From Oscillospiraceae bacterium (GTDB lineage: Bacteria > Bacillota > Clostridia > Oscillospirales > Ruminococcaceae), in contig JAZSCN010000041.1 in assembly GCA_045602925.1 (NCBI GenBank), positions 144,290 through 184,289 of the forward strand: a DNA stretch of 40,000 nucleotides, given 5' to 3'. Positions 3,574 to 17,190 of this stretch are shown in pieces. Both the position numbers and the translations under genes were made by a program. Below the pieces are notes generated by a model, which was not told the DNA's origin, ran no database searches, and saw only the letters and a program-made list of their open reading frames with translations. Every line of letters starts with the position of its first letter. Position 1 is the stretch's first letter.

Positions 3574-3629
3574 CATTGACTTATTGTGCTGAATGTGATA
3601 TTATAAGGATATTATCAGGAACATCAGAA

Positions 3630-4601
3630 ATGGAAAGGATGTGTAATGACTTGACAAAGCTTTATCTTGCTATTCCCTGCTACAATGAGGAGGAGGTTCT
3701 TCCTGACTCGGCGCAAAAGCTTTTAAAGAAGTATGATGAGCTCGCTTTGGCAGGCAAAATCACCCCTGACAGCAGAATTATTTTTATAGATGACGGCTCT
3801 AAGGACAAGACCTGGGAGCTTATAGAAAAGCTTCACGAGAGTGACAATCGCTTTGGTGGAATTAAGATGAGCAGAAACCGTGGCCATCAGAACGCACTAC
3901 TCGGTGGGCTTATGACTTTAAGGGACAAGGCTGATGCTGTTATATCCCTTGATGCTGACCTACAAGACGACATTGACGCTATTGATGGAATGCTCGAAAA
4001 GTACGAAGAGGGCTACGACGTTGTATACGGTGTTCGTTCCTCGAGAGAAAAGGACAGCTTCTTCAAGCGCTTTACTGCAGAGGGCTACTACAAGGTGCTT
4101 AACAAGATGGGTGCAAAAATCGTATTCAATCATGCTGACTTCAGACTTATGAGCAAGAGGGCGCTTGAGTCATTCTCAGAATTCCACGAGGTAAACATAT
4201 TCCTGCGTGGACTTGTTCCTATGGTTGGCTACAAGAGCACTATTGTTGAATACGAACGCAAGGAAAGACTTGCTGGAGAATCTAAGTATCCTCTCAAAAA
4301 GATGCTTGCGCTGGCACTTGAGGGTATCACCTCGCTATCGGTTAAGCCTCTTAGATTCATAACCGGCTTAGGCGTTATGGCGTTTATGGTGAGTGTTATT
4401 ATGCTCATTTACTTCCTTGTAAGATACTTTACCGGTCACACTATTGTTGGCTGGGCCAGTCTGGCTGTTTCCATCTGGGCACTCGGTGGTCTTCAGCTTT
4501 TATCTATGGGTATTCTCGGCGAATATCTTGGAAAGATTTATCTTGAGACTAAGGGACGTCCACGATTTATTGTTGAGACTTACCTTAATGATGAAGAATA
4601 G
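3630..4601 (+). CDS. GT2 family glycosyltransferase, GtrB-like polyprenol-phosphate glycosyltransferase with C-terminal TM helices
   Basis: YLAIPCYNEEE, IFIDDGSKD, SLDADLQD and two C-terminal TM segments. I prefer ATG 3630 over the GTG at 3549 because 3526-3573 is a terminator. Confidence 0.8.
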   Translation: MERMCNDLTKLYLAIPCYNEEEVLPDSAQKLLKKYDELALAGKITPDSRIIFIDDGSKDKTWELIEKLHESDNRFGGIKMSRNRGHQNALLGGLMTLRDKADAVISLDADLQDDIDAIDGMLEKYEEGYDVVYGVRSSREKDSFFKRFTAEGYYKVLNKMGAKIVFNHADFRLMSKRALESFSEFHEVNIFLRGLVPMVGYKSTIVEYERKERLAGESKYPLKKMLALALEGITSLSVKPLRFITGLGVMAFMVSVIMLIYFLVRYFTGHTIVGWASLAVSIWALGGLQLLSMGILGEYLGKIYLETKGRPRFIVETYLNDEE

Positions 4602-9872: not shown

Positions 9873-10274
9873 ATGTACGAATCAAAGACAGCATACTACT
9901 ACGGAACAGGCAGAAGAAAGCACTCCGTTGCAAGAGTTAGAGTTTATCCAGGCTCCGGTAACATCACAATCAACGGCAGAGCAATCGACGATTACTTTGG
10001 TCTTGAAACACTCAAGCTTATCGTTCGTCAGCCACTCGCTCTCACAAACAACACAGAAAACTTCGACGTTGTTTGCACAGTAGCAGGCGGCGGCGTTACA
10101 GGTCAGGCTGGTGCTATCAGACACGGTATCTCAAGAGCTCTCCTTCAGTTCAACGGCGAGCTCCGTCCAGAACTCAAGAAGGCTGGCTTCCTCACTCGTG
10201 ACCCAAGAATGAAGGAAAGAAAGAAGTACGGTCTCAAGGCTGCACGTCGTGCTCCACAGTTCTCAAAGAGATAA
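9873..10274 (+). CDS. rpsI: 30S ribosomal protein S9
   Basis: ...[19 protein letters not shown]...[10 protein letters not shown] prefer ATG 9873, which lies 8 nt after AAAGGAG. Confidence 0.93.
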
Positions 10275-10277
10275 TTA
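10260..10277 (+). repeat. attL core (TTCTCAAAGAGATAATTA)
   Basis: Identical to 17173-17190. It contains the last rpsI codons and the TAA stop. Confidence 0.8.
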
Positions 10278-10332: not shown

Positions 10333-10351
10333 TGATGTCCGTTTGATGTCC
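10333..10351 (+). repeat. Two direct TGATGTCC copies (candidate integrase arm-type sites, attL side)
   Basis: TGATGTCC at 10333-10340 and 10344-10351, about 55 bp inside attL. Confidence 0.55.
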
Positions 10352-10370
10352 GAACGGTCAAAAAACATAA

Positions 10371-10411
10371 AAAATCAGCGGTTAAGGTGTAAATCCTCAA
10401 CCGCTTTTTTT
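10371..10411. terminator. Bidirectional terminator at the distal end of the island operon
   Basis: AGCGGTT / AACCGCT stem flanked by an A-run and a T-run. Confidence 0.65.
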
Positions 10412-10416
10412 GTTGC

Positions 10417-10656
10417 TTATCGGTTAGTTTCGATAAAGTATTTTACAAGGTCAGGCAAAATGCCCTGCCGTGATACATCACCGATAAATGATACATCGGT
10501 TATCTTTGGCGGTGTCTTACCGTTGGTGTAAAAGTTCAAAACATCAATAATCTTTAACCGCTCTTTTCTTCCGTCATTGTATGTAATATCAGCCCACACA
10601 TCACGGAAAAATTCTTTTTCAAGCTCTGTAAGTCTTTTAATTATTGGCTTGTTCAT
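10417..10656 (-). CDS. Island small protein D (79 aa), member of the MxKxI[IL]x[KR]LxxLE family
   Basis: GAGAGGA SD 7 nt upstream. N-terminus is MNKPIIKRLTELEKE. Resembles protein C along its length. Confidence 0.65.
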   Translation of the reverse strand: MNKPIIKRLTELEKEFFRDVWADITYNDGRKERLKIIDVLNFYTNGKTPPKITDVSFIGDVSRQGILPDLVKYFIETNR

Positions 10657-10861
10657 AAGCTATCCTCTCAATTCTGTTCAATATCCTTTGCACATCGTCA
10701 AGGCTGTTCCCACTTATTACACGGATAAAGCTTGCATTTGGGCTTGCCTCAAGCTCGTCAACGGTGCATTGCTTTTCCACTCCGTCAAAGTCTGCAAGGA
10801 TAACAAGCTTATCAGGTGCTATCTGTTCAAGCTTTCTCAATCTCTCGATTATGCTTTTCAT
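10637..10861 (-). CDS. Island small protein C (74 aa), same family
   Basis: I place the start at MKSIIERLRKLEQ (ATG 10861) after a GAGGGGG SD. It overlaps the start of D by 20 nt. Confidence 0.6.
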   Translation of the reverse strand: MKSIIERLRKLEQIAPDKLVILADFDGVEKQCTVDELEASPNASFIRVISGNSLDDVQRILNRIERIAYEQANN

Positions 10862-10976
10862 CGTCTGCCCCCTCATCATCTCCGAAAATTTCTCTTTCAT
10901 ACATTGAAATATCTTCGATTTCGATTATCTCGTCATTTTCCAACATTTCAAGGCGTTTCAAAATATCCTTTGCCAT
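10827..10976 (-). CDS. Island small protein B (49 aa, acidic), same N-terminal motif
   Basis: Not in the supplied track (<60 aa). ATG 10976 follows a GCGAGGA SD. Translation is MAKDILKRLEMLENDEIIEIED.... It overlaps C by 35 nt. Confidence 0.4.
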   Translation of the reverse strand: MAKDILKRLEMLENDEIIEIEDISMYEREIFGDDEGADDEKHNREIEKA

Positions 10977-11138
10977 TTAGTCCTCGCTTTCAAAATCGTG
11001 TATATTTCTGTTTGGCTGTGGGTTTTCTATCAAGTATTGAATATAGTTCAAAAACTCTTGATGTCTTTTTTCCGTTTCCTCGTCAATGAGCTTTTGTTCT
11101 TTCATTTCCTTGAGCTTTTTCAATATGGCTTTATTCAT
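10977..11138 (-). CDS. Island small protein A (53 aa), same N-terminal motif
   Basis: Not in the track. ATG 11138 overlaps the upstream TAA (TAATG) and follows an AAGGTGAG SD. Translation is MNKAILKKLKEMKEQKLIDEE.... Its stop abuts the ATG of B. Confidence 0.55.
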   Translation of the reverse strand: MNKAILKKLKEMKEQKLIDEETEKRHQEFLNYIQYLIENPQPNRNIHDFESED

Positions 11139-11827
11139 TAGTCGCTCACCTTGATATAAAACTTTTCCGCTTCAGATGTGATTTTATCTGCCGTTTCTTC
11201 ATAAAGTCTTGCAATACCTGTTGCACCTGCGAAAACCTGTTCTTTGTCCCTGCGGTCTTTGTCTGCTCTGACGGCTCTTGTACTCCACAAAATAAGGTCG
11301 TTTATCGGTCTTATATAAGGGAATGAGGCTTCTTTACATTTGATAGCAAAACTTCCCATTTTTCTATCTATTGTGTCGCTGATATTTGCTCTTTCTTCCG
11401 CATATTTGCCGATAATTCTTAACATAGTGATATTATCAGCAAAACCATCTGCAAGGTCTATCAATTCATTATCTTTGAGAACACCGCTTTTGAGTAGTTC
11501 AAGTGTAGGCATATCAATCATTGAGGCTGTCGCTCTGTTGTACGGCTCAAAGATTTCAACACATTCTTGCTTGATTGCTTCAAATTCTGCTCTTGCTCTG
11601 TCCTCAACGCTTTCAAAAGCAATACGGAGCTGTTTCATTTCCTCATCGTGCTTGATTGAGGCTTCCTGTTTCTCTCTTGCATTACTCCAACCTCTGCGGA
11701 GTTCTTCGTTCCATTTCTTTTTACCCTCAATAAGAGCATTACCAAGTGTTACATATTCCTCTCTATATTTCGGATATGCGTTTCTTATTCTGTCTGTAAA
11801 TTCCTTAACATTTCTATACTGTGCCAT
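11138..11827 (-). CDS. Island 229-aa helical protein, unknown function
   Basis: AGGAG SD. Charged, helix-rich composition with no motif I recognise. Confidence 0.7.
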   Translation of the reverse strand: MAQYRNVKEFTDRIRNAYPKYREEYVTLGNALIEGKKKWNEELRRGWSNAREKQEASIKHDEEMKQLRIAFESVEDRARAEFEAIKQECVEIFEPYNRATASMIDMPTLELLKSGVLKDNELIDLADGFADNITMLRIIGKYAEERANISDTIDRKMGSFAIKCKEASFPYIRPINDLILWSTRAVRADKDRRDKEQVFAGATGIARLYEETADKITSEAEKFYIKVSD

Positions 11828-11848: not shown

Positions 11849-12211
11849 TTAATTATTCATACTTTTTTCAAGTTCTTCAATTCTTGAAATTATGTCTGCC
11901 TGTTCGGTGTATTTCAGGCAATTTTGCAATATCAGAGCAGAGGCATTTAATCGCACCTGTGGAGCGGTGTCCGTATCTTCCATAATGCCCCTGATTGTGT
12001 CAACCGCCTTTGTCAATGTTGCTTGTAATGTATTGCAAGCCTCATTCAATACAAGAGAACGCCTGCGGTCATATTCTGCCTTGAATGTTTCGTCAGCAAG
12101 CCTATTGTAAATCGTGGTACGGCTTACGCATGAAATTTTCTCGGCTTCCGCTATGCTTCCACACGATAACAGAGCGGTCAAGATGTGTTCGTCTTTTGGT
12201 TTCAATTCCAT
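11849..12211 (-). CDS. HTH protein resembling the N-terminal DNA-binding module of small terminase subunits
   Basis: LKPKDEHILTALLSCGSIAEAEKISCVSRTTIYNRLADETFKAEYDRRR follows the pattern of TerS N-termini (LTxKQxxF...G..t.Aa..aG.S..TaY..l..p.v...i), followed by a helical oligomerisation-like tail. Confidence 0.65.
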   Translation of the reverse strand: MELKPKDEHILTALLSCGSIAEAEKISCVSRTTIYNRLADETFKAEYDRRRSLVLNEACNTLQATLTKAVDTIRGIMEDTDTAPQVRLNASALILQNCLKYTEQADIISRIEELEKSMNN

Positions 12212-12215
12212 TCAA

Positions 12216-12548
12216 TCACCCCTTATTTTGTGCGATTTTTCGCTGATATGTAAAGATTTTACCTGCTGTTTTGTCATACACTCGCAAGCCTGACGGAATA
12301 ATCTCGATTTTTATTGTATCGGTGTCAACTGATGTATAAGGCTCGGAAACGCTTTCAGAACGCTTTACACGGACGGAGCGGAAAGAGTATTCCTTATCTG
12401 CTACAAGGTCAGAAACAAGCGTTATATTGCCCTCTCGTGTGATTGTAACGCTATCACTCTGATATAGTGTTTTCGGCTCATTGTTGCACCCTGCAAACAA
12501 CATCAAACACACACATACAAGCAACGCAAAAGCAATTTTACTTTTCAT
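12216..12548 (-). CDS. Island lipoprotein (110 aa)
   Basis: Signal peptide with lipobox: MKSKIAFALLVCVCLMLFAG-C. Confidence 0.75.
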   Translation of the reverse strand: MKSKIAFALLVCVCLMLFAGCNNEPKTLYQSDSVTITREGNITLVSDLVADKEYSFRSVRVKRSESVSEPYTSVDTDTIKIEIIPSGLRVYDKTAGKIFTYQRKIAQNKG

Positions 12549-12687
12549 CTGTATTCACTCCCTTTTTGAGTTCTCGTATTTCGGCTTTTAGTCGATTGAT
12601 TTCTTTTCTTTGCTCATTCCATTTATGCTCCCATTGTTTGATTTTATCATTCAAAAGGTCTATGAGCATTTTGTCATAGTCTGTCAT
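12538..12687 (-). CDS. Island 49-aa coiled-coil-like protein
   Basis: Not in the track. A GAGGTGA SD precedes ATG 12687. Translation is MTDYDKMLIDLLNDKIKQWEHKWNEQRKEINRLKAEIRELKKGVNTDEK. Its stop overlaps the lipoprotein start. Confidence 0.45.
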   Translation of the reverse strand: MTDYDKMLIDLLNDKIKQWEHKWNEQRKEINRLKAEIRELKKGVNTDEK

Positions 12688-15686: not shown

Positions 15687-15715
15687 ATTATATCACAATA
15701 TTTTTTATTTGTCAA
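15687..15715 (-). promoter_or_regulatory. Consensus sigma-A promoter driving the island minus-strand operon
   Basis: On the minus strand: TTGACA, a 17-nt spacer, then TATAAT. Confidence 0.7.
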
Positions 15716-17031: not shown

Positions 17032-17056
17032 TGTCCGTGATGTCCTTTTGATGTCC
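17029..17056 (+). repeat. Three direct TGATGTCC copies (candidate integrase arm-type sites, attR side)
   Basis: TGATGTCC at 17029-17036, 17038-17045 and 17049-17056. The run starts in the int stop codon and has the same orientation as the left copies. Confidence 0.55.
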
Positions 17057-17172
17057 GAAAATACAAGAGGCTATTGCAATTTACAAAAAGTTATGATACA
17101 ATAATCAAGGAAAAGCCTTATAATATCGGACTTTTCAAAACGATACAAAACACTATAAAACAGCGTTCTTAT

Positions 17173-17190
17173 TTCTCAAAGAGATAATTA
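17173..17190 (+). repeat. attR core (TTCTCAAAGAGATAATTA)
   Basis: Identical to 10260-10277. It is a duplicated rpsI 3' end with no rpsI body upstream. Confidence 0.8.

Follow-up and report, generated by a model that had tools for sequence, protein, structure and literature searches.

Microproteins of a satellite-like island from gut Oscillospirales share a helix motif with a small-terminase-like protein and are probably its partners

The 40,000-nucleotide window analysed in this work, the whole stretch of Oscillospiraceae DNA presented here, contains a 6.9-kb island whose minus-strand genes end in four tandem small genes, A53, B49, C74 and D79. The four encoded microproteins start with a common helix motif (hereafter, the tag), and the same motif is found at the C-terminus of a small terminase subunit (TerS)-like protein encoded in the island. 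Since the microprotein genes cluster with the TerS-like gene across islands, both are jointly absent from a group of sister islands, and the motif is common to the TerS-like C-terminus, we interpret the family as a core packaging-linked partner: the four microproteins probably work with a DNA-packaging protein and are not optional cargo. As a serious but still tentative proposal, a two-heptad coiled-coil tag may dock interchangeable small heads onto the TerS-like oligomer, thereby steering helper packaging. The microproteins would thus constitute an undescribed and unannotated partner family of the TerS-like gene, extending from gut Oscillospirales to satellite prophages of Streptococcus pyogenes, S. 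pneumoniae and S. dysgalactiae. The four genes are the following:

A53, 10977-11138, minus strand: 53 amino acids; tag helix MNKAILKKLKEMKE; conserved acidic tail NPxPNRNIHDFESED
B49, 10827-10976, minus strand: 49 amino acids, acidic; tag helix MAKDILKRLEMLEN, then E-IIEIEDISMYEREIFG
C74, 10637-10861, minus strand: 74-amino-acid alpha/beta protein; tag helix MKSIIERLRKLEQ
D79, 10417-10656, minus strand: 79-amino-acid alpha/beta protein; tag helix MNKPIIKRLTELEKE; last gene of the operon

A reading made from the sequence alone (the sequence-only reading) had described these as four coupled minus-strand open reading frames (ORFs), each with its own Shine-Dalgarno sequence and two of them shorter than 60 amino acids, and its coordinates and junctions were exactly reproduced. 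The gene for a 229-amino-acid protein and A53 are joined by TAATG and A53 and B49 by TAAATG, B49 and C74 overlap by 35 nucleotides and C74 and D79 by 20, and a GAGG-type Shine-Dalgarno sequence lies 5-7 nucleotides upstream of each of the four starts. Pairwise comparison of related islands gave ratios of nonsynonymous to synonymous substitution (dN/dS) of 0.07-0.56 in every informative pair for all four genes, including the two below 60 amino acids (A53, 0.11-0.25; B49, 0.14-0.46; C74, 0.07-0.46; D79, 0.13-0.56). On this sequence evidence, A53, B49, C74 and D79 are real genes under purifying selection. The acidic tail of A53 was conserved in distant islands (L039, L048 and G444), including islands in which the identity of the other genes is about 30%, and the acidic segment of B49, EIEDxSxYExxIFG, has a distant B-type homolog in G444. 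Searches of 5.8 billion proteins returned 59 homolog clusters for C74 and 36 for D79, none of them named. In line with the initial failure to recognise the family, none of the four proteins matched any family of Pfam, PHROGs, NCBIfam or PADLOC at E ≤ 0.01, the best values (0.019-0.095) being far weaker than curated cut-offs, and literature searches found no published description of it.

The significance of the shared N-terminus was evaluated in the whole 2.17-Mb genome, the six frames of which contain 60,665 starts of ORFs with 30 amino acids or more. A loosened version of the motif that had been noticed in the sequence-only reading matched exactly A53, B49, C74 and D79 and nothing else in this set; among these N-termini the motif is unique to the four genes, and its sharing is not due to chance. 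When residues 2-14 were aligned without gaps (BLOSUM62), the three siblings of each member ranked within approximately the top 8 of all N-termini. In a comparison with shuffled sequences, which had been proposed as a control, whole-sequence Smith-Waterman scores between members were weak (z = 1.3-4.5 only), and the pairwise signal vanished when residues 1-16 were removed. Because of these weak whole-sequence scores, the significance rests on the fact that four adjacent genes match at a fixed position of the N-terminus. The motif was also kept in homologous islands, as the same reading had asked, and recurred in homologs with about 20-25% overall identity. Its core is I-x-x-R-[LI]-x-x-[LI]-E, with I present in 36 of 48 microproteins, R in 41/48, L or I in 44/48, L, I or M in 43/48 and E in 38/48. 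What A53 and B49 share with C74 and D79 is the helix only.

The second occurrence of the motif within the island is at the end of the TerS-like protein, a helix-turn-helix (HTH) protein that terminates in ...DIISRIEELEKSMNN:

TerS-like HTH protein, 11849-12211, minus strand: 120 amino acids; match to phrog_2538 'terminase small subunit' at 5e-7
C-terminal tag of the TerS-like protein, nucleotides 11864-11893, minus strand: residues 107-116, IISRIEELEK; same motif as the microprotein N-termini

A position-specific scoring matrix (PSSM) built from microprotein N-termini only was scanned over 638,041 10-mer windows from about 2,085 genomic ORFs, and the C-terminal 10-mer of the TerS-like protein ranked third. 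A match of at least 11 bits within the last 32 residues was kept in 19 of 20 distinct TerS-like homologs, and the conserved columns have the same spacing as in the microproteins (I 13/16, R 13/16, L/I 15/16, L/I 16/16, E 16/16). In addition to the phrog_2538 match, the assignment of this protein is based on matches of its family profile to the small terminases 7joq and 6w7t in the PDB (E 0.03-0.08) and on a Pfam Terminase_2 match in one of 12 homologs. Among 50,697 phage records the TerS-like protein matched only 32, namely 30 Streptococcus satellite prophages and two small faecal 'Bacteriophage sp.' scaffolds.

Related islands were collected from species-representative genomes with the 229-amino-acid protein as anchor, which yielded 27 loci in metagenome-assembled genomes of gut Oscillospirales (Acutalibacteraceae, Ruminococcus, Flemingiibacterium and others) plus one IMG/VR contig; these loci are related to one another, so counts across them are not independent. 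The array composition varied among ABCD, BCD, CD, C only, D-type only, and a new type together with D, and the survey of copy number that had been suggested beforehand gave 0 to 6 tagged microproteins per island. The family is sparse: four of 400 sampled genomes of the same bacterial family gave hits (a single full-length copy, two fragments from the C-terminus and a marginal match), 2-3 good matches were obtained among 400 genomes of the same order, and one 99%-identical copy was found in another genus. When 1.84 billion representatives were searched with a profile combining the C, D and X types, only 41 clusters were retrieved at E < 1e-3; the 28 that were examined encode proteins of 58-103 amino acids, mostly 67-94, and the helix starts every one.

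In every island found that has a TerS-like gene, 1-6 tagged microproteins share its cluster, usually adjoining it and often overlapping or abutting its stop or start. This clustering holds across islands with unrelated integrases and replicases, including Streptococcus satellite prophages. In L040, which consists of an integrase, an AAA_25 replicase, a lipoprotein, the TerS-like protein, a 229-like protein and then a single member, the 229-like gene intervenes as it does in the window. The member overlaps the TerS-like start in L041/42, closes the TerS-like cluster in L043, and lies within that cluster in L045/46; L048 has four members there. G444, from another family of the same order, carries six (types B, X, X, C, A and D), with all four window types represented at 30-40% identity. 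Two 6-7-kb human-faecal 'Bacteriophage sp.' scaffolds, MT837364 and MT837714, also have a tagged member in the TerS-like cluster, and the Streptococcus satellite prophages Javan758, Javan479 and Javan138 possess one or two such small genes (N-termini MKAIKNRLNKL, MNSNLKKRVDKL or MVKKNNILKRLEH), which flank the TerS-like gene or come after it. On the other hand, nine sister islands (L021-27, 29 and 31) that have the same integrase, the same attachment (att) site in rpsI and a 229-like gene are without both the TerS-like gene and the tagged microproteins. A further member, P0121, is encoded directly 3' of a PBSX-type large terminase subunit (TerL) gene; a homolog search with P0121 returned P0121 alone, a scan of IMG/VR with it found nothing, and tblastn of D79 and P0121 against the 50,697 phage records gave no match.

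Other genes were observed at some of these loci. In the nine sister islands (e.g. L022:6654-7100) the array is replaced by an acidic repeat protein (DFSFDDFxIDLDIDFSFDDFDFDF...) and a basic ORF of 42-50 amino acids. Positions 1921-6736 of L060 (MT837364.1) hold the TerS-like gene, the tagged small ORF and a 277-amino-acid helical protein, followed directly by phrog_11299, phrog_706 and a tape-measure protein, and there is no TerL, portal or capsid gene between the block of the 277-amino-acid protein and the tail genes; L060 may be a satellite with tail genes or may have an unusual gene order. In L063/L064 (Javan479 and Javan138; 3629-4337) two ArpU/RinA-like regulator genes come after the block of TerS-like and tagged microprotein genes, and in L045/46, L060 and L061 sigma-like genes lie just 5' of the TerS-like gene.

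In the proposed docking mechanism, each microprotein would consist of a common N-terminal amphipathic helix and a different C-terminal head, the heads being an acidic peptide tail in A53 and in B49 and two versions of a small alpha/beta domain in C74 and D79. The core motif I-x-x-R-[LI]-x-x-[LI]-E can be read in the heptad register d-x-x-g-a-x-x-d-e, which would place hydrophobic residues on d, a and d (and a). In parallel coiled coils, a g-to-e pair, i to i'+5, bridges neighbouring helices; a conserved Arg at g and a Glu at e, five residues on, would be suited to such pairing. Through the tag, the microproteins would assemble with one another and with the TerS-like oligomer, at its C-terminal helices, and the packaging-initiation complex would thereby carry interchangeable heads. 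The contacts of these heads could be helper-phage components, namely the large terminase, the portal or helper TerS, with the outcome that packaging is directed to the island or that helper packaging is blocked; interference with helper packaging is in this way a possible output of the partnership between the TerS-like protein and the microproteins. A more specific form of the idea, modular docking, in which a TerS ring would recruit heads by the shared tag and each head would fit a different helper terminase or portal, we consider doubtful. If it were true, how many tagged microproteins an island has (0-6), and of which kinds, would set the helper range of a satellite, and the same system would operate in the Streptococcus satellite prophages.

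Several observations weigh against the docking of tagged heads on the TerS-like oligomer. The TerS-like identity is itself weakly supported, all the profile matches being weaker than curated thresholds. The two windows that outrank the TerS-like tail in the PSSM scan belong to unrelated proteins of 1,010 and 521 amino acids, and IxxRLxxLE-like strings occur in ordinary coiled-coil proteins. Two heptads are short for a stable stand-alone coiled coil. In the window, the 229-amino-acid gene separates the TerS-like gene from the array, and the joint absence of both partners amounts to approximately one event, because the nine sister islands form one closely related lineage. Finally, three TerL genes in prophage-like regions of the same genome (C3:114-1907, C13:15160-16524 and C33:48205-49485) mark candidate helpers, and the tag motif was found on no TerS or neighbour in these three regions.

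The last observation also bears on the alternative that the microproteins are decoys or mimics, the tag binding a third partner, most plausibly the helper TerL, which the microproteins would occupy or bridge; here the lack of the motif in the three resident TerL regions, as candidate helpers, slightly favours self-assembly over mimicry. The TerS C-terminus binds TerL in several studied phages, such as P22 and lambda, and a decoy role would agree with the presence of the same motif on the TerS-like C-terminus, with the position of P0121 right after a TerL gene, and with the precedent of CpmB and a scaffold that share a terminal helix motif (PMC5644958). For the conserved charges (Arg at g, Glu at e), however, pairing between tags explains the pattern no less well than binding to a shared third site, and we regard the decoy explanation as unlikely. 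The proposal of the sequence-only reading was that the array is diversified helper-interference or anti-phage cargo at the distal end of the island. In its present form, this alternative takes the genes as independent helper-interference or anti-phage cargo whose helix serves for self-oligomerisation only, the resemblance to the TerS-like tail being a coincidence of coiled-coil composition. The genes are indeed located at the distal end, a frequent position of accessory genes in PICIs (PMC13376191); copy number and composition differ between islands, the tails of A53 and B49 are acidic, and the array behaves as one module in recombination. Nevertheless, the place in the TerS-like cluster is kept across very different islands and host classes and is lost together with the TerS-like gene, and no PADLOC match was obtained. 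Furthermore, types A-D are old, unlike fast-turnover cargo, since versions 30-40% identical exist in another family of the same order. The clustering with the TerS-like gene, the nine islands that have neither and the motif on the TerS-like C-terminus do not support the cargo proposal, which we judge rather unlikely, though a little less so than the decoy.

Two other explanations were considered. The microproteins might be virion or assembly components (head-completion, adaptor or scaffold-like proteins) acting on helper capsids and unrelated to terminase. P0121 lies between TerL and whatever comes next, and the size and alpha/beta nature of the proteins resemble those of small head-completion proteins such as lambda gpW; but there was no Pfam or PHROG match to gpW or to any structural family and no Foldseek match, and with the queries used the family was not found in the 50,697 phage records or in IMG/VR, so that a virion role seems improbable. 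It is harder still to credit that chance, or an mRNA signal serving coupled translation, accounts for the resemblance of the N-termini. All four starts do lie in overlaps or abutments; against this, what is conserved is the amino-acid sequence, many of the changes being synonymous (dN/dS 0.1-0.45), and the motif is found also at a C-terminus and in the homologs that are about 20-25% identical overall.

The sequence-only reading had aligned C74 and D79 downstream of the helix as well. The AlphaFold2 models of the two proteins agree in how their elements are ordered and spaced, a1-b1-b2-a2-b3-a3 (C74: H2-14 E20-25 E28-33 H34-39 E44-50 H54-73; D79: H3-17 E21-26 E31-35 H36-44 E52-58 H67-77), with a confidence, expressed as predicted local distance difference test (pLDDT), of 83 and 82, respectively. 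In both models the N-terminal helix was the least confident part (pLDDT 60-73, vs 84-94 in the alpha/beta core), a pattern typical of segments that become folded on binding. Full-length hhalign comparison of the two profiles aligned columns 1-34, corresponding to the helix and a D-G hairpin (E 1e-4, probability 57%; E 0.004 and 9% with deeper alignments). Without residues 1-16 there was no pairwise signal between C74 and D79 (z = -1.1 vs shuffles), and hhalign of the profiles with the helix trimmed gave none either (probability 0.1%). The downstream alignment is thus upheld only in part, by the common element order and by the helix and hairpin, and beyond residue ~32 it is not significant by sequence. 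C74 and D79 are probably paralogs over their whole length. Both fall within a C/D-type family of 70-95 amino acids, encoded in the TerS-like gene cluster, in which the N-terminal tag helix precedes a b-hairpin turning at D/N-G and then a helix, a strand and a helix. Foldseek searches of the C74 and D79 models against the PDB and of D79 against BFVD revealed no analog (best E 0.04-0.4, TM scores mostly <0.4).

The C-terminal half of D79 (ITDVSFIGDVSRQGILPDLVKYFIE) was observed fused to unrelated N-termini, one of them an HTH_17 domain, and also as a lone remnant beside decayed islands (P0032, P0033 and P0036; L002:7372-7647; L037; G273:C10:4222-4326; G259:C12:375-483). These fused and remnant halves suggest recombination break-points inside D79, near the att-proximal end.

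Candidate identities arising from the weaker matches were discarded. For C74, a match of residues 30-71 to acyl carrier protein in the PDB (E 0.02) was rejected, as the Ser expected of a D-S-L phosphopantetheine site is not conserved (GNCLEDV, GNNISEV, GGGTLEDV, NKNEDV) and the model is alpha/beta, not a four-helix bundle. The match of the D79 tail to I-MsoI (E 0.008, in a tandem fusion construct) was treated as a chance result. A head-completion protein of the lambda gpW type was dismissed as well, with no Pfam match and no Foldseek match with E below 0.04 in PDB or BFVD. Contig C2, with three moderate PSSM matches, turned out to be ordinary chromosome (RNase Y and others).

Helper choice and capture of the packaging motor by small capsid-less Gram-positive satellites are largely unexplained outside the Staphylococcus aureus pathogenicity islands (SaPIs), and tag-mediated assembly on TerS is offered here as a concrete hypothesis. 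The closest parallel is CpmB of SaPI1 (72 amino acids), which shares a C-terminal RIIK helix-and-hook with the 80alpha scaffolding protein and copies the capsid-binding helix of this helper scaffold (PMC5644958). As with CpmB, we are dealing with small satellite proteins (72 vs 49-79 amino acids) that have one short amphipathic helix, at a terminus, in common with a larger morphogenesis protein, and in CpmB the helix is the functional contact. Unlike the CpmB helix, which is C-terminal, copies a helper protein and binds the capsid protein, the tag is N-terminal, is common to the satellite's own TerS-like protein and is present on 1-6 paralogs per island, and there is no sequence or fold relation. 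Ppi of SaPIs and Rpp of EcCICFT073 are likewise small satellite proteins of the packaging module, which bind helper TerS and redirect or block terminase specificity; unlike the microproteins, they are single genes without a TerS-shared tag, and no sequence similarity was found (no PHROG or Pfam match). None of the four proteins showed profile similarity to SaPI CpmB or Ppi or to PICI Rpp in PHROG, Pfam, NCBIfam or PADLOC. For annotation, an N-terminal I-x-x-R-L-x-x-L-E in a protein of <100 amino acids near a TerS-like gene could serve as a signature, and might reveal microproteins missed by gene callers.

Between the TerS-like gene and the array lies a gene with a different behaviour:

229-amino-acid helical protein, 11138-11827, minus strand

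The protein matched no family in Pfam, PHROGs, NCBIfam or PADLOC, and no structure either. Its homologs in L004, L005, L018 and L022 are only 37-41% identical, as against 95-100% for the TerS-like gene upstream and the B/C/D genes downstream, and there are at least three allelic types (229, 217 and 220 amino acids). Judging from these comparisons, the gene behaves as a swapped variable cassette, and its product may be a specificity determinant. A 49-amino-acid coiled-coil ORF at 12538-12687 on the minus strand, MTDY..LIDLLNDKIKQWE..., contains the helix motif in a weaker form and has homologs in L018, L022 and L040; it may belong to the same assembly, because in L040 it is placed after the tagged microprotein and not before the lipoprotein.

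The island itself is inserted in rpsI and bounded by an exact 18-nucleotide direct repeat. The elements that delimit the island and its operon are listed below:

att core copy 1, 10260-10277, plus strand: exact 18-nucleotide direct repeat, spanning the final rpsI codons and the stop
att core copy 2, 17173-17190: second 18-nucleotide copy, delimiting the 6.9-kb island
Consensus promoter TTGACA-17-TATAAT, 15687-15715, minus strand: 12/12 consensus match, from a consensus scan only
Intrinsic terminator, 10377-10405, minus strand: directly 3' of D79; 11-bp stem, then a T-run

A tyrosine integrase (PF00589, 1e-29) is encoded on the plus strand. The minus strand encodes an Xis-like HTH protein, a PrimPol/VirE replicase of 688 amino acids (PF05272, 6e-51; phrog_1313/1829), small ORFs, a lipoprotein, the 120-amino-acid TerS-like HTH protein and the 229-amino-acid protein, followed by the array. 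No capsid, portal, tail or lysis gene was detected among the island proteins by Pfam or PHROGs. The integrase with att repeats, the island's own replicase, the absence of structural genes and a length below ~15 kb are features of phage-inducible chromosomal islands (PICIs), and by its architecture the island fits a PICI-type satellite. The satellite-like character assigned in the sequence-only reading is therefore borne out by the att repeat at the 3' end of rpsI, the integrase, the Xis-like HTH protein, the PrimPol/VirE protein, the TerS-like gene and the lack of structural genes. The same set of an integrase, an Xis-like HTH protein, a primase/replicase and a TerS-like gene without structural genes is found in Gram-positive PICIs (the Javan series and the S. 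thermophilus StCIs; PMC13376191), in which accessory genes occur between terS and the island end (PMC13376191). Unlike those PICIs, the present island has a gut Oscillospirales host, an rpsI att site and no evident repressor gene. The operon ending in D79 is probably read from the promoter at 15687-15715; a terminator scan revealed no other minus-strand terminator between 15356 and 10405. As the promoter (15715-15687) and the terminator (10405-10377) bracket the whole minus-strand gene set, A53-D79 would be the last cistrons of a single island operon. In addition, direct repeats of TGATGTCC were observed at 10333-10354 and 17038-17059, close to both island ends, and are compatible with arm-type sites of the integrase.

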